Origin: Octopus vulgaris
Lineage: Eukaryota
Reading direction: 5' to 3'
Assembly (NCBI GenBank): GCA_951406725.2
Contig: OX597830.1
Span: 50,964,001 to 51,028,000 of the forward strand
DNA length: 64,000 nucleotides
The position numbers and the translations under genes were made by a program. The number at the start of each line of letters is the position of its first letter. Position 1 is the first letter of the stretch. This document shows positions 16,355-39,100 of this stretch, piece by piece. Under the pieces are notes generated by a model. That model saw nothing but the letters and a program-made list of their open reading frames with translations, was not told the DNA's origin and searched no databases.

Positions 16355-16355
<1 letters not shown>

Positions 16356-16460
16356 ATAAGGGTGAAAAATTGAATATTAATTTGATTAATATGAATTGAA
16401 AACCAGTAATGTAGCATATAAGACCATAGCAGATCTTCTAGCAAAATGGATGACCACTGT
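16355..16460. mobile_element. Terminal fragment of the foldback family seen at 20050-22608
   Basis: Starts TAAGGGTGAAAAATTGAATATTAATTTGATTAATAT, the same terminus as 21951, abutting a (CA)n tract. Confidence 0.7.
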
Positions 16461-16619
16461 TAATGGTTCATCCCTGTTATATAATACTTTCACTTTAATA
16501 GTTTCAGTATTAAAGTGAATGTCTGCATTGCAATAGAGAGTTATTTTTGTTTCACTTTTACCACGTAATACTGAAATAGTGGAGAAGATATGATATTGCT
16601 GTGGGGTCGCCCTAGGGAA

Positions 16620-16751: not shown

Positions 16752-18034
16752 TAGCCTTATTTTCATAAACCAGTTATGTAGGACCTATTCAAAGAAATTG
16801 GTCTATTCGATGTAGCCATATGTCATACTCTTGTTAACAGTTATCTCGTAGACGCCTTCTGTTCTACATGAAATATATTGTTTTGTCTCAGGTACATAAC
16901 ACTGGACTACATTTTCAGAAAGATGTTTTCATTTAAGTATTGGGCGCAGAATCAACTCTGCTCTCGGAAATTTCATATGTAGTAAATTTATTTCGGAAGC
17001 ACATTTTAGAATTTTGGTACCATAGTATGCATGAAATTCGTATACAAATAGAGCAGAAGATTGACGTATGTGCTTTGATAGCTAATATAGGCATTATAAC
17101 TGTTTTATAGGAAGATCTAAAGTTTTTCACCTATATTTAGATACTACATTAAATTTATATTTATAAAAATTACATACATTTTGTAAACATTTATTAAAAT
17201 TGGTATATTTTATTACATATATCTCGTCGCTCTTGCACTATCTGGAGACGAAAAAGTAATAAAATACATAAAATATCAGTGACATAACAGTGAGAATAGT
17301 AAACAGTGCTACAGCGTGAGAAGAAATACACCACCCAGCCAATAAATTCATTCCGTTCCACATTAATTGAAAGTCGAAAGATGTAGAATACGCATAAAAA
17401 AAACCCAGAAAACACGGCTGATTTGGCAAGTGCACTAGTTTAACTAGAGCAGCTGCCTGTTTCGAGGTTGTTGAATATGATAAATTCTTATTTGTTCACT
17501 TATTTGGCAGCAACAATAATCTGACATATATTCGTATTTAACCTGGTATCTTTTTGTCTTTTTAGTGTTGTGTGTTTGTGTGTGTGTGCGCGTGTGTGTG
17601 TGTGTGAGTATATGACTGCGTGTGCGTGTTTGTGTGTGTATTGGAAACGCCTCGTTTGCTCTTTTCTAGCAACCCTTAAATTGGCGTGGGCTTTATCTAA
17701 ATGGACAGGGTGAGGGGGAATTAACTTTAATATTCATATTTCAACCAAGTTTCTGAAACGGAAGATTTATTCATTAGATCGCTTATAGACACGTTGTGGC
17801 CCAGAACGCTTTTACCAACTTCTGTGAATGCAACGCAAGCATTCTTTTTTTTTTTTTTTTTTAGTTTTTAGTAAACAATGGCGTAGGGAGTGTGTGTTTC
17901 GCCTAGACTAGCCTTTGGAGTTTGTCGTCCCCGCCCTTTCGAACACTACACAGGCTTGTATAGCAAGCCTAAAAGTGCCTTCTGGGACCGACAGCCTCAT
18001 ATCCCTCACTGTCTTCGTAACTGCAAATGAACTT

Positions 18035-18200
18035 ATAAAAAGCTCCTGCCAACTGTTATGAACACCATCCTGAGTCAGGGGTTGAACACTGACAGAACAA
18101 TCCAGAATAGTCAGCCAGACATAATTATTAAAGAAAGGGAAGAAAATACTTGTAGACTTAGTAAACATACTTGCCTTAAATATTTCTCTTGAATTAAAAA
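18035..18200 (+). mobile_element. R4/Dong-type LINE fragment (RLE endonuclease)
   Basis: YEHHPES...TDRTIQNSQPDIIIKEREENTC; homologous to 24545-24930 and 38590-38750. Confidence 0.7.
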
Positions 18201-19244
18201 ATATTTCTCGCATCAATACTTGAAAAATACACATAGTTAGACTTTTAACTGATTCTATTTTAAAATCTTCATTGATATGAGAATTTTTCTTGTTTTACAA
18301 GGTGATGTGGATGATGTACTCTCCACCATCTTAATCTCTCTTTCCGTTTGCTTTTCACCAAAGCGTTTCTTTTACCTCGATTCTCCCATAAACAAAAAAT
18401 ACAGTTCAATATAACCGCTTTACTGGGCAGCCAGTGTCAAAATTAGTTTCAAAACCTCTGAATATCATCCAAATTGCATTCAAGTATTGTGGCTTTACCA
18501 GTTTATTTTCATGGTTTCATTATACTTTTGTAGATGTACCGATTGACTTGTTTGCACCGAAACAGATATATTTCTATTACTCACTAAAACATACCTTAAT
18601 TTTAGCTCTCATTGAAGAATCACCATTTGTCTGATACTAACGATGTTGTATTGTATTTAACAAACCATTAACTCTCTTGCAGTAAACATTTGGCAAACTA
18701 TTTACTCTGTTACACTAAACATCAGCCATACAGAAGAAATGCAACAGATCTTATTCGCTTTGTCGATAAAAACAAAATACTCTCTCCATTGATTGTGGTT
18801 ATTTTTTAATCAAGCTGGATACAGAAACTTTTACCGAATCATTGGAAGATCTACATCGCACTCTATCTATGTCACTTAACTGCGACTGAATGAAGGAATT
18901 GTGTATCTTTATATCAGTATGGTTCGTATCAACTTCGAGCTCAATGTTTCCCTCTCACGTCCCGCACATAACTTTATTGATGAGACTTTATTAAATACAT
19001 GCATTTCGGTATAATGCAGTACCGTGCGGAGTGACCTTATTCTGAGCAACATCACGAGTCCTTGTTGTTGTTGCTGTTGTTGTTGTTAATGATGATGATG
19101 ATGATGAGATTCCATCTGATAGCAGAATGCAGAGATGTGAAAAAGAAATGCAGCAGGAGGAATAGGCAGATCATGCTAGATGGGGCGAAGTCGTATAAGA
19201 AAGCATTAAAATTCTCACCCCAATTCGCATTTCCGGAAAAAGAA

Positions 19245-19550
19245 AAATCTTCTTTAGCCTTCCTTACTACTCGAAACATTGTCTCGTCGTCGTAAGCTTG
19301 CCGAAGCATGATTGATGTCTCTGTAGCTGAATTCCCAAGTTTAACGCGAAATTTCACGCTGGCGATTTGTTCTAACTTCCCGTCTGTGGTAAAAATTCAC
19401 ACACTGCAGCATACGTGTGATTACAAAAACACAAATTTCACAACTTGCGAATTAAACACAGTGATGTCACCTGGCACACTGCCTCATGAAGGTCACTTCT
19501 AGCTCTCAGTACGCACGAAGTATACTGTTCCATGACGGTAAGGTAAAAAA
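19245..19550 (-). mobile_element. mariner 5' fragment (HTH N-terminus of transposase)
   Basis: LEQIASVKFRVKLGNSATETSIMLRQAYDDETM matches the mariner N-terminal pattern EQRxxIKFCVKLGKSATETxxMLxQAYGDxxM. Confidence 0.8.
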
Positions 19551-19705
19551 AAAGTTACTCCATTTGACGAGAGATAAATATTATTTGATAAACACAAGAC
19601 ATGCTTTTATGTGCTATTATTAGTTTCATGTGGTGAGAGCATGCCGGGCAGTTTTTTAACACATCTGCTGTCCTAGCACAATCATCAGTCACTGCCCTCG
19701 AACTA

Positions 19706-19857
19706 CATGGTGAATTTATGGAATGAAGTTCCATAAATCACATCAATTTTAAGCTTCTTATAAGAAATAAACTTCTTATAAATTTTAGCAACTCTTCTCC
19801 TCCATTTTTAACAAAATGGATGGAATTTATGGAACTTCATTCTACAAATTCATCCTG
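19706..19857. mobile_element. Small MITE with ~45-bp TIRs (Tc1/mariner-type ends)
   Basis: TA|CATGGTGAATTTATGGAATGAAGTTCCATAAATCACATCAATTTT vs AAAATGGATGGAATTTATGGAACTTCATTCTACAAATTCATCCTG are imperfect reverse complements. Confidence 0.75.
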
Positions 19858-20002
19858 CATTATATACAAATACTACTTTCATATCTTCTCAAATGTACGC
19901 TTGTGAACTGCCAGCACAGTATGAAGAATCAACATAAGAAATCTCGAATTAAAGGACGAATCCACATTCAGCGTTTATACACCTATATAGATAGATAGAT
20001 AA

Positions 20003-20049
<47 letters not shown>

Positions 20050-20057
<8 letters not shown>

Positions 20058-20495
20058 TACATATAAGAGGGATGACCGCTAGCTGGACATCCAGTTTGCT
20101 AAATGTATGAAGAATCAACATAAGAAACTTTTTGGGAAACCTCGAATTAAAGGACGAATCCACATTCAACGTTTATACACCTATATAGATAGATAGATAA
20201 ATGTATGTATATATAGATATAAATATTACATATAAGTGGGATGACCGCTAGGTGGACATCCAATTTGCTAAATGTAGACCACATATGATCATATCATCTG
20301 ATCACTAAGAAAAATTGTTATCAAGAAAATTCGGCAAACGCCAGAACGTAAGCGAGCAAGACAAAATATATTGGATGGCCTGCTGGCCATCCCTCTAATA
20401 TGTATGTAATATAATTTTTCTAAAGCTTCAGATTTTTCCCTATGCTAGGCCACTGGTTTAAATTGATATTAATCAAATTAATATAATTTCTTTAC

Positions 20496-20500
<5 letters not shown>
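20050..20500. mobile_element. Internally deleted foldback element (family of 21269/21951) in (TA)n
   Basis: Left-arm piece (GCAAACGCCAGAACGTAAGCGAGCAAGACAAA) joined to a right-arm piece ending TTTACCCTTA|TATA; the spacer is missing. Confidence 0.75.
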
Positions 20501-20533
<33 letters not shown>

Positions 20534-20548
20534 CTGCGGTACAAATTC

Positions 20549-20599
<51 letters not shown>

Positions 20600-20601
20600 C
20601 A

Positions 20602-20900
20602 CGGCGCATGAATTAAAGGGGTCAGTGTGGCTCTCATGGCTGCGAGATCATGGCTTCGATTCGTAGACTTGGCGTTACGTTGTGTTCTTGAGCAAAACAC
20701 TTCATTTCCTGTTGCTCTACATTCATTTCATTTTCTGACAAGCGGCACATCGTACACCTGTGTAGGTAATGTCGATTTGATGGAAGGAGTGAGTTTATGT
20801 GAGCAGAAACTCTCGATCACTATAAACAAACCAACTGTGTGGTTGTTCAGCAAGAAATTCCAAAGCCCTCATTAATCGTCTAACGATGGGAGAGTCCTTT
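20602..20900 (+). mobile_element. tRNA-derived SINE, degenerate (family C/D-type)
   Basis: B-box-like GGCTTCGATTC, central GTTGTGTTCTTGAGCAAAACACTTCATTTC, and tail CCCTCAT...CGTC.AACGA.GG.GAG shared with 55246. Confidence 0.7.
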
Positions 20901-21167
20901 GTGATCCTAAATAAATTTATAGTTATGTACACTGATGTGTCTATGTGTTCGTACATGTATCTACTATTGCCCTTTTTTGCATTCACATGCATATCTTATT
21001 CTGTACATGTTTTTCTATGCATATCTCTACACTCCTCGGCATGTTTAATTCTAGGAGTGCGTGTTTATGCTAACATGAATACAAATAAACCTACGAATAC
21101 ATGCGCAAGTGCCTATGTATGTGTATGCGTATAAGCATACATGTATATATATATATGTATGTATATG

Positions 21168-21206
<39 letters not shown>

Positions 21207-21214
21207 TTATCTAT

Positions 21215-21261
<47 letters not shown>

Positions 21262-21268
21262 ACGTACA

Positions 21269-21765
21269 TATGCTAGAAGCAGATTCGCCATGGTCTTACC
21301 ACTAAGAAAGGAATGTTCTCAAGAAAATTTAGCAAACGCCAGAACGTAAGCGAACAAGATAACCCCAAGTGTAATTGGTAGAACTGTATACATGTTCAAT
21401 CTCATGCGAACGTCTCGTGTATAGTTCTGCAAATTATATTTGCAATGGCTATCGTACTGAACAGCTACGGACAATTACGTAAGTAATTTGCGTAAGTGTT
21501 AATAGCGAAATTTAATTATTATTAATTTATATTTCTTTCTTTTCATTTGTCTTGCTCGCTTACGTTCTGGTGCTTGCTAAAATGTCTTGAGAACATTCCT
21601 TTCTTAGTGGTAAGACCATAGCGGATCTACTTCTAGCATAATGGATATTCACGTAGTGATCACCCCTCTTATATGTATGTAATATAATTCTTCAAATTTA
21701 TTATGCTAGACCACTGGTTTTGAATTGATATTAATCCAATCAATATTCAATTTTTCACCCTTATA
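21269..21765. mobile_element. Foldback element with decayed hammerhead-like spacer (Penelope pLTR-like)
   Basis: Inverted arms ~21269-21360 and ~21548-21640; right end CACCCTTATA in (TA)n; spacer CTGAACA-GCTAC...ATAGC-GAAA at 21457-21510. Confidence 0.8.
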
Positions 21766-21835
21766 ATTTTATATTTAAATATATATATATATACAAATAT
21801 ATATTTGTATGCATGTATGTATGTATGTATGTATG

Positions 21836-21866
<31 letters not shown>

Positions 21867-21950
21867 GATTCGAATGCACTCGCTATAGCGCGCCAAAATT
21901 CACGGAAACAGATACTGCATAAAAAATTTACTGCAGTATAATTAAAATCA

Positions 21951-22602
21951 AAAATAAGGGTGAAAAAATTGGATATTAATTCAATAATACCATCAATTTA
22001 ACACCAAGTGGCTTACCGCATAAAAACCAGGGATACAATAAAAGTTTATACACAAATATAAGAGAGTGTCCACTATGTGGTCGAATCTTGCGCTAAAAAT
22101 AGATCCGCTATGGTCTCAACCACCAAGAATTGTTTCCAAGGAGAATTAGCACAACTATGAGCGTAAACGAGCAGGGCAAAAGAAAAATAACTGCGAATAT
22201 AATCGACTAAACCACACGTGTGTTTGACGTAATGTTAAAATCTAGCGTGCGGTTTAGGAAATTGTATCCAAGACAAATTCTATTGATGAGCTATGGATAT
22301 AGTGTGTAAGTAAAATTGCATAATTTATTAATAGCGAAACAATTGTCTAGAATTAATCTAAATTTTTGTTATTTTTCATTTGCCCTGCTCGTTTACGTTC
22401 ATAGTTGTGCTAATTCTCCTTGGAAACAATTCTTGGTGATTGAGACCATAGCGGTTCTATTTTTAGCGCAAGAGTCGACCACATAGTGGAAACTCTCTTA
22501 TATTTGTGTATAAACTTTTATTGTGTCCCTGGTTCTTATGCTCTAAGCCACTTGGTGTTAAATTGATGGTATTATTAAATCAATATCCAATTTTTTCACC
22601 CT

Positions 22603-22608
<6 letters not shown>
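21951..22608. mobile_element. Foldback element with ~240-bp inverted arms and a central hammerhead motif
   Basis: Arms 21951-22191 and 22368-22608 are reverse complements with scattered mismatches; termini AAAATAAGGGTG / CACCCTTATTTT; followed by (TA)n. Confidence 0.92.
22276..22354 (+). ncRNA. Minimal type-I hammerhead ribozyme motif (C3U variant)
   Basis: Stem I AATTCTA/TAGAATT (7 bp), core TTGATGA, stem II GCTAT/ATAGC, GAAAC, palindromic AC-AATT-GT, cleavage triplet GTC (22345-22347). Confidence 0.8.
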
Positions 22609-22642
<34 letters not shown>

Positions 22643-23379
22643 TCTTTGATACGATCTCCTCTATGCATTCCTGTTCGCTACCCTCGCTCTATGAATAACT
22701 ATTCTGCCCCCTTTCTCTTTCTCTCTCAGGTGTCTCCCCTGTCAAAACAGTTAACTCTCACTTCCAACAATACAAATAATCCTCCTCCACACCTAAAAGC
22801 TAATTATTCTGTTCAGAAACTATAAAATTCCAAACTACGGAATTTCCCCCATCCCACCAATATTCTGTATTCACCAACAAACCACTAAAACTCATTTCGC
22901 TACAAATATATTTATTGTATGCACCAGAAATCTTATTTTCGCAAAGAAACAACCATGTCTGTTTAATTACCAAAATCACTTCTCCGACATATTCTCGCAA
23001 CGCCGCCGTTGGCGTAAATTAAACATATCCACCATGTTGTCAAACAGAAATATACCAACAAATCAGCTAGACGCACACCATCAGCCGAAATCACACTAAA
23101 TCACCGATTTTAATTAAAAATAAAGAGAAACACTAACAACTACGACTCCAAAAGAGGACTGCATGAAGTAAACACACACTGCGCTCCATACTCGCAGCCA
23201 AATAAATACAACCGCAATCGCTCGGAATCCCACCATCTATGAGAGCTTTACCTCTTTACCTTTTGGAATGAAATTGTAACATATTCAATCTCCAGCATAT
23301 GTATGTATGTTTAGTGTATGTGTTTATGTATGTATGTCTTTATGGATGAATATATATACTTACATATAAGAACAATACA

Positions 23380-23422
23380 TATATATATATATATATATAT
23401 ATAAGCATTTATACTTATTTAC

Positions 23423-23458
<36 letters not shown>

Positions 23459-23536
23459 AATATCTAAAACATATACATATATGTAAAAAGTAAACATATA
23501 TCTATGTGCAAATATGTGTATATGCACGTATGTATG

Positions 23537-23570
<34 letters not shown>

Positions 23571-24104
23571 TGTATGTATGTGTGTGTGTGTGTGTGTGTA
23601 TGTATGTGTGTATGTATGTATGTGTGTGTGTGTATGTATGTGTGTGTGTATGTATCTGTGTGTGTATGTATGTAAATGTGTGTGTATATATATGTATACC
23701 GTGTGAACTACATTTTAGTGAACTAGAGTTATCAGTAATTCCTGACCTAGATCCTGGGAGATATTCAGTCAGCAAACCTTCTGAGTATTTCTTTATTACA
23801 AATCAATGAAACAAGAGGGGAGCGGATGTGAAAGATGGGTGAATCTTAATTCGATTGTGGTGCAAAAATAAATGTACATAGGAGGTTACAGAGAAGATAA
23901 TAAAATAGGACACATATATATATAAAACTGAAATCTTTTGAAATCGAGGTAATTTTAGTGTAATCTCATATAATATTCCTCGCTCTCCAGTCGATCATTC
24001 AGTGCGAATATAAGATTTGATATATTAAATGTAAGATGTCTAAAAAAACACCAGTCGCCTCTGGTCTTATGCAAATATAAAATCAAATAAGCACTCTCAT
24101 ATAC

Positions 24105-24175
<71 letters not shown>

Positions 24176-24330
24176 ATATATGTGTGTGTTTATGTGTATA
24201 TATTAAGTATACATAAACATGTACATATATATATACACATATATAAATACACAGACACGCACGCAAAAACACCGGGCTTGCACACACACGCACACACACA
24301 CACACATACACACACATGCACACACGGACA
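23380..24330. repeat. (TA)/(TATG)/(CA) microsatellite clusters
   Basis: Direct reading; short unique spacers lie between tracts. Confidence 0.85.
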
Positions 24331-24544
24331 TATATTGAATACGTTATCTTGTTGTCTGAATGCTCTTTTTGTACTGTGCTGCATAAATTGATGAATTCTC
24401 ATAACATTGTTTCATTAGTTTCATTTACATCTTTGGTTTTGTTCCACGACAACAACAACAGCAACACCACCACCAACAACAACAGCAGCAGCAGCAGCAG
24501 CAGAAGCAACAAAACAACAACAACGACAATAACAATCAGCACTC

Positions 24545-25074
24545 TTGCTAACTACTATCAGCACCATGCTGAAGTTAAAATGTAACAATCCTCTTGGATT
24601 TTCCACTCAACACTTATAGAACAATCCAGATTAATCGACCAGACATAATTATTAAAGACTGGGAAGAAAATACTTCTGGAAGTATAGATGTGTCCCCAGT
24701 CATAAAATATATGTATTAAACAATTTGGCAAACTTAGCAAGTATAATTACCAGGAATTTGAAATACAAACGATGTGACATCATAAGACAAAAACAGTTCC
24801 TATTGTTGTGGATGCCATAAGTATGATAAAAAAAAGGTATGTTAAAAACAGCTAGACGACATCTCAGGAGAACCATAAGAAGGTGCTAACAATTACTGCC
24901 CACATTTTAAGAAAACCCCAGTTAATTTATATGATCGTGTTATATGAATGTATTTTTGTACTGTTATCCCACATCCTCTACTAAAGCTGTCAGTTTTATT
25001 TCAACATCTCTTACCCTTCATTTGCCCCAGGGCTCTGGGCGTGTGCTGACAAGTGATTGCATCAAATATTAAGA

Positions 25075-25078
<4 letters not shown>
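24545..25078 (+). mobile_element. R4/Dong-type LINE 3' end (RLE domain + 3' UTR) ending in (AAT)n
   Basis: VTILLDF...TIQINRPDIIIKD...IDV...KLSKY...TVPIVV...TAHILRK; the tail runs into (AAT)n at 25078-25135. Confidence 0.85.
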
Positions 25079-25105
<27 letters not shown>

Positions 25106-25137
25106 AATGATAATAATGATAATAATGATAATAATAT

Positions 25138-25545
25138 ATTGGCATGGAATTTGGGATCGAGAAATATGGTGTAATGATTCTCAAAAGGGGGAAAAACCAG
25201 TAAAAGCCATGGGATCAAGCTGGAAAGTGGCAGAACTATAAAGGAAGTCGCAGAGGAAGGATATAAGTAGCTGGGTATCATTGAAAGAGACAAGCTGAAC
25301 GAACACAAGATGAAAGAAATGTACAGGGAATAGTATTTGAGGAGAACTCGGCTTGTGCTCCAATCGAAGCTAAATGGCCGCTATAAAATTAGAGCAATTA
25401 ACACGTGAGCGGTTGCTTTGATGAGTTAAGGAGCAGGAATAGTACCTTGGAAGAAGAATGAATACAAGAGATAGACCGGAGAACACGTAAATTAATGGCA
25501 ATGAGCAAGGAACTACACCCCAGGAGTGTAAAAGCAGTGCTCTAC
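25138..25545 (+). mobile_element. R4/Dong-type LINE RT fragment
   Basis: IGMEFGIEK.GVMILKRGK, GYK*LGI, YLRRTRLVLQSKLNGRYKIRAINT*AV...GAGIVPW. Confidence 0.82.
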
Positions 25546-25559
25546 CAAAATAACGAAAG

Positions 25560-26540
25560 CACAACAACATATACATATAAAATCTGGATGAAAGGTAACC
25601 TAAATAAAGACTTGGATGAACCCTAATAAACTAGCTAACATACGAAAACATATTCTCAAAACAAAAATATATCAGAAATAGAAATAGAACATATAAAAGG
25701 TAAAATATATCAGGAAAATCTAGATGGTAGCCACACAGAAATGCCAAATAAGATAAACACTGAGATAGTAAAACACGAAGACAGACGTAACATTTCCAAC
25801 AAAAGCGAAGTAAACAACAAAAGACAACAAACCCAGAGCGTACGAATGTATAATAACGTGCAAAAAGCACCAATCCAGAACACCAGAGACAAATATATGA
25901 ATGAGAAGGAAGGCGAAATAAATCTAAAACCTGGAAACAGTGAAGGGAAACCTAATGATTTTGATACTCTAAAAATGAGCATAATCAAAGAATTGAAAAC
26001 CAGAGATCTCAGAATGGACCACAGATTATACCTCCCAAAAATCAAAATAGACAATAAAACAACATCAATAATGAATAGCATGAACCTGGCCGTCACGGAA
26101 CTAATAGCCACAGAAACAAAGGTCAAAATCACCGAGCTATATGACATAATATATGCAGCAGCCACTGCAACCACAAAATAAGCTGGACAATCCTTCAAAC
26201 CCTTCCAAACAGGAGTACCACCGCCCAAGCAAACCATGTTGATAAATAATATCCAAATAAATATAGAAAAAAAGAGAAAAGATCTGTCAATTCTTAACAA
26301 AATTAGTAGACGGTCAACAAGAAGAGAACTAAGCAACAAGAAGAGAACTGTGCCAATGCAACATTACAGGAAAAGTTACACCTGAGGTAAAAGAAAAGCT
26401 AAAGCAAGATATCCTTGCCAAAGCACAAAAGATCCGCCGGTATGAGAAGCGCCAACGTTTCTTTGAACAAAATACACAGTTCAGCTCCAACCCCAAAACA
26501 TTCTACCAAGAACTTGGCAAAAATAAAACGGAACCAGCAT
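25560..26540 (+). mobile_element. R4/Dong-type LINE N-terminal ORF fragment
   Basis: ORF 25741..26181 (RLYLPKIK...ITELYDIIYAAA), continuing IEKKRKDLSIL and LKQDILAKAQKIRRYEKRQRFFEQNTQFSSNPKTFYQEL. Confidence 0.8.
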
Positions 26541-26920
26541 GATAAGTGGGAATTAGAAATAAAATTAGTCTACTCCCATCTGATATTAAAATGATCAAGA
26601 TTATCAAAGACGAAAACAATATTAAGGTAACAAAATCTATGAAGCTGTGAAGAAAATGACATAAATAGGATAAGTGAAATTGAAAAAGCAACCGAGAAAC
26701 ATAATAAGCCAATATTTCAAACTAAAGCAACACGTATTAAGACGTTTGGAAAAAATTCAAATTTTTTCGAGGAAAACGGTATGTTCAGAAACAATCTGAA
26801 AAGTTCTTATAGGAAAATTCCAAAAGTTAATATAACTATTAAAACCACACCTGCCGAGTGGGAAGTTTCAAAAGTTTTGGAAATCGAACTGGTCGACCCT
26901 TCAGAACATAATTGTTATGC

Positions 26921-27364
<444 letters not shown>

Positions 27365-37842: not shown

Positions 37843-39100
<1,258 letters not shown>

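Follow-up and report, generated by a model that had tools for sequence, protein, structure and literature searches.

What kind of mobile element carries a hammerhead ribozyme between two long inverted arms? The window analyzed here, by which we mean the whole 64,000-nucleotide stretch of the Octopus vulgaris genome, holds one such element. A sequence-only reading had noted its resemblance to a MITE and had assigned it instead to a retro-element, namely a solo pseudo-LTR (pLTR) of a Penelope-like element (PLE) accompanied by an inverted partial copy. We arrive at another reading, to which we give a probability of roughly 0.8: the element is a 5'-truncated, head-to-head retrozyme insertion, likely reverse-transcribed from circular RNA into a (TA)n tract by a Penelope-like reverse transcriptase (RT)/GIY-YIG protein that primed both strands.

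The inverted arms of about 240 bp are real, with 241 nt each (21951-22191 and 22368-22608), 95% complementarity (12 mismatches) and 176 nt between them. The whole element occupies 21864-22608, and because its left piece extends to 21864, i.e., 87 nt past the limit of the "arm," it is asymmetric. It is made up of two 5'-truncated pieces of one circularly permuted 506-nt monomer, placed head-to-head. In a numbering that starts at the base after the ribozyme cut (m1), the inverted left piece (21864-22191, minus strand, 97% to the family majority) corresponds to m21-348 and turns its RNA-3' end outward into (TA)n, and the direct right piece (22187-22608, plus strand, 422 nt, 95% to the family majority) starts at m346, passes through the ribozyme and ends at m261 of the following unit (m346-767). 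Their 5'-to-5' junction is a 5-nt overlap, or microhomology, at 22187-22191 (junction gap -5). The earlier reading overlooked m262-348 of the left piece (21864-21950, minus strand), the sequence that lies directly upstream of the "spacer" in other copies; its "TIRs" are m21-261, the stretch common to both pieces. The element is flanked on both sides by (TA)n: a (TA)n/(TATG)n tract on the left (21780-21863), common to a neighboring older element, and a tract on the right read from the sequence (22609-22641).

The monomer can be recognized from the other copies, in which the spacer continues into the right arm and is preceded by an 86-nt linker and, before that, by the arm end again; this order of arm, linker, spacer and arm defines the unit as circularly permuted. 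Loci chosen by similarity to the window copy, 192 in all, yielded 106 distinct loci (110 elements) of what we call family A. A family-A-specific pattern has 50 matches in the genome and a strict pattern for subfamily B has 19. The subfamily-B unit is about 536 nt long and 70% identical to A; family D, whose loci come from contig C1 only, is young, has a 531-535-nt unit that is also 70% identical to A, and forms arrays that reach 12.8 units. Of the first 100 genome matches listed for the hammerhead core, the majority belong to family D, and copies longer than one unit occur in family A as well (e.g., locus L219, with two ribozymes). The units of A and D are non-coding and low in GC, with no long open reading frame (the longest stop-free frames have 58 and 72 codons), and the longest members that we found are tandem arrays of the same non-coding unit with no transposase between the arms. 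Since the sister subfamily forms tandem arrays, the family is, as judged from its sequences, an animal non-LTR retrozyme with PLE-type ends, rather than a solo pseudo-LTR, with self-cleavage and circular RNA as predicted properties. Pieces of the family were also seen in contigs of four runs that we guessed to be RNA; level, strand and ends are unreadable there, and we do not count these contigs as evidence.

Animal non-LTR retrozymes (PMC7229834; bioRxiv 10.64898/2026.07.22.740005) are described in similar terms: non-coding, low-GC tandem units that each carry a type I hammerhead, found as monomers, dimers and multimers, with a highly self-paired circular fold predicted and with co-occurring PLEs. 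Units of 506-535 nt compare with 150-450 nt in the first of these sources and 51-972 nt in the second. Retrozymes of this kind may also have long target-site duplications; the octopus copies end in (TA)n, a sequence that would mask any duplication. Two features distinguish the octopus family from the retrozyme descriptions in the available text of both: helix II carries a long stem-loop extension, and the copies lie head-to-head in (TA)n with a PLE-type tail.

The window has further traces of these elements and their surroundings. The window copy is inserted in the (TA)n tail of an older, head-to-head subfamily-B copy (21269-21787, plus strand) whose hammerhead core has decayed (CTGAACA at 21457-21463). 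This copy is one of four older subfamily-B pieces within 6.3 kb, two of them head-to-head, the other three being at 20227-20526, 20046-20108 and 16355-16480. A tandem duplication of 186-198 nt at 19919-20275 covers a (TA)n tract together with the end of a subfamily-B piece. Among 15 window frames scanned out of 33, one matched zf-RVT, a 269-codon frame at 37919-38725 (plus strand) that is likely a LINE fragment; we found no PLE protein match in the window.

The hammerhead that had been reported in the spacer can be read part by part at 22276-22354 (plus strand). Helix I pairs 22276-22282 with 22348-22354 and helix II pairs 22290-22294 with 22331-22335; the other parts are TTGATGA (22283-22289), GAAA (22336-22339) and C-AATT-GTC (22340-22347), with the predicted cut after C22347, and the motif ends 13 nt before the right arm. 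A palindrome, occupying 22339-22346, had been taken to replace stem III; what we find is the usual 2-bp helix III closed by a palindromic tetraloop. When both strands of the 64 kb were scanned with a loose motif, the window hammerhead was the single match. A search of 18000-27000 against Rfam (E <= 1) gave no hammerhead match, and its 47 matches were driven by microsatellites. Across the genome, 2,220 sites match the core pattern exactly and the reversed pattern, used as a control, matches nowhere, which places the hammerhead beyond chance.

The motif is also of another class than had been supposed. Canonical metazoan hammerheads have a helix I of 6 bp, a helix II of 4 bp and a helix III of 1-2 bp with a palindromic loop, and are active as dimers (PMC4209133). 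The octopus family has the same type I layout, with a helix I of 6-7 bp, a helix II of 4-5 bp, a 2-bp helix III and a palindromic loop. The PLE minimal hammerhead, to which the motif had been assigned, differs in its short helix I, its helix II of 7-8 bp and its extra base at 9/10.1, as far as the available text of the same source describes it; the family has none of these.

The hammerhead is conserved across the family. Of 78 family-A segments spanning the core, 74 have C at position 3 and 67 keep the entire core intact. The sequence-only reading survives two ways in which it might have failed: a core missing from the family and a transposase between the arms of longer members. Because C prevails in family A, the U of the window copy (22283) is a C3U change. 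Such a change is expected to lower hammerhead activity. The 12 invariant core positions of family A show 1.5% mismatch versus 5.9% over the monomer, and N7 varies at 33%. Seven of 20 named hammerhead pairs are altered on both sides between subfamilies A and B. Among A, B and D, five of the six helix I pairs are so altered, with a covariation score reached by 0/500 shuffles, in a comparison of three related subfamilies that therefore holds few covariation events. One row of the alignment (L044 in A1, L294 in A2) lacked the greater part of the motif and contributed few cells. All three subfamilies have a palindromic loop III, with a sequence that differs between A/D and B, and two copies of it are predicted to pair at -6.4 kcal/mol. 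For the window copy, the hammerhead fold (-17.0 kcal/mol) is not the minimum-energy fold (-20.4 kcal/mol). The ribozyme-capped 240-bp double-stranded RNA envisaged for this copy, in which core position 3 is U, is a possibility read from its letters.

What RNA served as template can be approached through the variation among units. The 97 full units of family D, taken from 27 loci, show 1.6 substitutions within an arm and 1.2 between opposite arms, versus 12.9 between loci; there are 26 haplotypes among the 27 loci, and the arms are identical in 6/8 loci with full units on both. In family A, 4.1% of sites differ between the arms of one element versus 8.6% between elements, and non-majority bases are common to both arms at 3.7% of sites versus 0.7% between elements (29 elements). 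The window copy is a weak example, with 12 differences and 2 shared bases in 244, and its left arm is more similar to 6/22 other arms than to the right arm of the same copy. The cut site shows no excess of 5' ends (13/187 versus 11.1 expected; 4/74 versus 4.2), so that the template appears to have had no free end there; a barrier at the ribozyme cut, acting as the RNA 5' end, is thereby rejected. Circular monomers are predicted to fold at z-scores of -4.8 to -7.4 relative to 30 shuffles (natural A and D: -4.8 and -7.0). These observations incline us toward a single circular template; alternatively, gene conversion, unequal crossover or a collapse in the assembly could underlie the identity of arms and units.

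The best-surviving alternative retains the same element and enzyme and replaces the circle with a linear, uncut multimer, the arrays having been lengthened or homogenized later in DNA. It has support from an in vitro system in which unprocessed RNA was the main substrate and hammerhead mutants still inserted (PMC11167929), from the invocation of unequal crossover for retrozyme arrays (bioRxiv 10.64898/2026.07.22.740005), and from arrays L277, L279 and L338, where the same variant occurs in several units and could have been passed on by a varied master array. However, 26 haplotypes at 27 loci, each with near-identical units and matching opposite arms, would call for many separately homogenized masters, and both the low mismatch of the core beside a freely varying N7 and the folding of the circular monomer far better than its shuffles speak against it. 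We regard a linear template as a serious candidate, but an unlikely one. In those three arrays, the recurring substitution is found in non-adjacent units, in L338 on both arms; this could stem from conversion, from an assembly error, from two templates, or from one modified base that was misread repeatedly on a circle.

Young PLEs of the same genome have an intact 781-codon frame in which RT (RVT_1) and GIY-YIG both score over cut-off, with a CxxC motif before the nuclease, a feature that points to the Neptune or Nematis clade (PMC8557442). Copies of this resident PLE end in (TA)n, and the family has a different, minimal U3-A8 hammerhead motif, found at 12 loci on the PLE strand. PLE protein matches near family-A copies are few and consist of separate short fragments. 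At L223:430-5672 and L224:467-5388, the 781-codon frame of this young autonomous family follows an open frame of 360-380 codons with no clear Pfam family, and there are also tandem repeats of about 90 nt in the 3' UTR, a 35-nt tail and a U3-A8 minimal hammerhead-like motif. An unrelated hammerhead family at L225:1260-1905, with the palindromic loop ACGATCGT, has entered the (TA)n tail of a PLE as a head-to-head copy, and the ends of this element resemble site Y of family A (see below). Further hammerhead motifs, with a TCGA palindromic loop, occur near GIY-YIG fragments at L226 and L272.

Could the first proposal, that of an autonomous PLE's solo pLTR joined to an inverted partial copy, nevertheless hold? 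Every insertion mark is of the PLE type, Xenopus retrozymes are related to pLTRs (bioRxiv 10.64898/2026.07.22.740005), and the 53 PLE loci that we compared are a minority of 6,136 GIY-YIG candidates. Within those 53 loci, however, there is no terminal repeat homologous to A, B or D. The RT and GIY-YIG frame expected upstream of homologous spacers is likewise absent: in 106 family-A loci, the unit, which is circularly permuted and forms multimers, continues into itself and never into an ORF. The canonical hammerhead of the family also contrasts with the minimal U3-A8 motif of the resident 781-aa PLE. The element is thus probably not a solo pLTR, an origin to which we assign a low probability. 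The other half of the first proposal is upheld: this is a retro-element from the PLE orbit, and it includes a partial copy in inverted orientation.

The retrozyme reading draws its connection to PLEs from the ends of the copies. Orientation switches in family A (106 loci, 110 elements) are 5'-to-5' in 53 cases and 3'-to-3' in one; in family D (44 loci), the corresponding counts are 23 and one. In the first 97 family-A loci, 70/146 outer 3' ends fall at m155-170 (site X) and 59/146 at m259-275 (site Y), together 129/146, and 109/146 adjoin TA-rich DNA versus a 3.5% background. The two sites are not used independently. Both 3' ends point outward in 52 family-A elements, and the 39 with both ends at a site comprise 37 XY, one XX and one YY (P=1e-9 versus independence); in the remaining 13, one end or both are off-site. 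Of 21 inverted elements in family D, 18 have a site at each end, every one of them XY (P=4e-6). The resident 781-aa PLE (20 loci) behaves alike, in that all six uninterrupted inverted copies combine one plain end with one bearing a 35-nt tail; what appears to be a seventh inverted copy, L313, is interrupted. Sites X and Y (m145-165 and m250-270 in family A) open with a similar motif, CYCTTATWTT, in both A and D, which is perhaps a duplicated start signal. Our literature search, which covered few subscription papers, found no count of X+Y pairing and no report of such pairing for retrozymes.

The window copy departs from this rule, being among the 13 with an off-site end. Its right piece reads through site X (22502-22512, plus strand, m155-165), one of the two preferred 3' end sites of the family, and stops at site Y (m261), so that it includes the "tail" of about 100 nt between the two sites (22513-22608, plus strand). 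Its left piece ends off-site at m348, adjoining the start of the right piece at m346. In L1 twin priming, the end of an inverted 5' part abuts the start of the direct part, and the m348/m346 arrangement of the window copy resembles this, as do L021, L026 and L203. Breakpoints abut within 15 nt in 12/36 simple inverted family-A copies (permutation mean 6.3, P=0.004), in 12/43 of a larger family-A set and in 2/19 family-D copies. Abutting breakpoints of the L1 type were rejected as a general rule, the effect being modest in A and near absent in D. Here, unlike in L1 twin priming, both primers normally lie at fixed internal sites and the contents of the arms overlap, and abutting is the exception.

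Insertions of endonuclease-bearing PLEs (PMC3846280, PMC8557442, PMC11167929) share with these copies the 5' truncation, the inverted, 5'-truncated head-to-head copy, the partial tandems, the tail at one end and the AT-rich or (TA)n targets. The octopus family differs from them in its lack of an ORF, its arrays of up to about 13 units and its tail of about 100-120 nt, compared with 30-40 nt for the PLE tail, in the descriptions that these sources make available. The PLE protein studied in vitro nicks both strands and extends them, beginning at two internal positions of the RNA between which the tail lies; for PAc, the start site showed no strand difference in the accessible account and the hammerhead was dispensable for insertion (PMC11167929).

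A tail on one of two inverted pLTRs has been noted before, and for Penelope the inverted arm was proposed to arise by fold-back self-priming on an antisense template (PMC3846280). Such an origin would suit the dominance of the head-to-head orientation, as well as the 6/43 A and 5/19 D copies whose 5' ends are no more than 20 nt apart. In most copies, though, the junction is asymmetric, with an offset of tens to hundreds of bases (m21 versus m346 in the window), and fold-back alone leaves the X+Y pairing unexplained; we consider it quite improbable here. As for a MITE, i.e., a non-autonomous DNA transposon with a captured hammerhead, the 241-bp, 95% inverted repeats, TA targets and lack of an ORF give it a surface likeness, but the element is not one, and this reading is effectively refuted by the lack of fixed TIRs at both ends of all copies and of a DDE transposase in longer members, by arms that are unequal and vary in extent from copy to copy, by the 58/110 family-A elements without the form in which both ends point outward, by tandem arrays, and by ends that are RNA-3' ends at internal sites.

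That the retrozyme was mobilized by a PLE is, in our judgment, highly probable; how the two ends came to be paired is more tentative. Under the retrozyme reading, multimeric transcripts would cleave themselves, helix III likely being completed as a dimer, and the monomer would be ligated into a circle. A PLE protein dimer would nick both strands of a (TA)n tract, and the two nicks would prime at different sites of the same RNA, one at X and one at Y. Each cDNA would then travel a random distance around the circle, from 0.1 to 13 turns, before the two cDNA ends were joined through a few bases of microhomology. In the window copy, the second primer likely landed off-site at m348, exactly where the first cDNA stops (m346). 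Abutting of this type may reflect an occasional second primer that lands ahead of the first enzyme, as in L1 twin priming. The 241-bp "TIRs" would be the stretch that was copied twice. We offer as a working model, at somewhat less than even odds, that a PLE dimer sits on one retrozyme circle, with one subunit at X and the other at Y, and copies for up to 13 rounds.

The formation of tandem and inverted ends by PLEs has been called undefined (PMC8557442), and the link between retrozymes and PLEs has so far consisted of co-occurrence and pLTR trees (bioRxiv 10.64898/2026.07.22.740005). The retrozyme described here, with more than 2,000 young units, itself displays the end signature of PLEs. The tendency toward a one-sided tail has already been published qualitatively; what is added here is a quantified rule of one X and one Y that is shared with an autonomous PLE. 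There is a practical consequence too, as TIR-based tools would class such copies as MITEs. The pairing of the two start sites, nearly strict as counted here, gives a figure that can be put to the test in vitro with a PLE protein; the published experiment showed no strand difference. If the model of one dimer on one circle is true, the one-X-one-Y rule would account in one step for both the inverted pLTRs and the one-sided tail, and, as it is shared by the resident autonomous PLE, it would be cis evidence that PLEs mobilize retrozyme circles.
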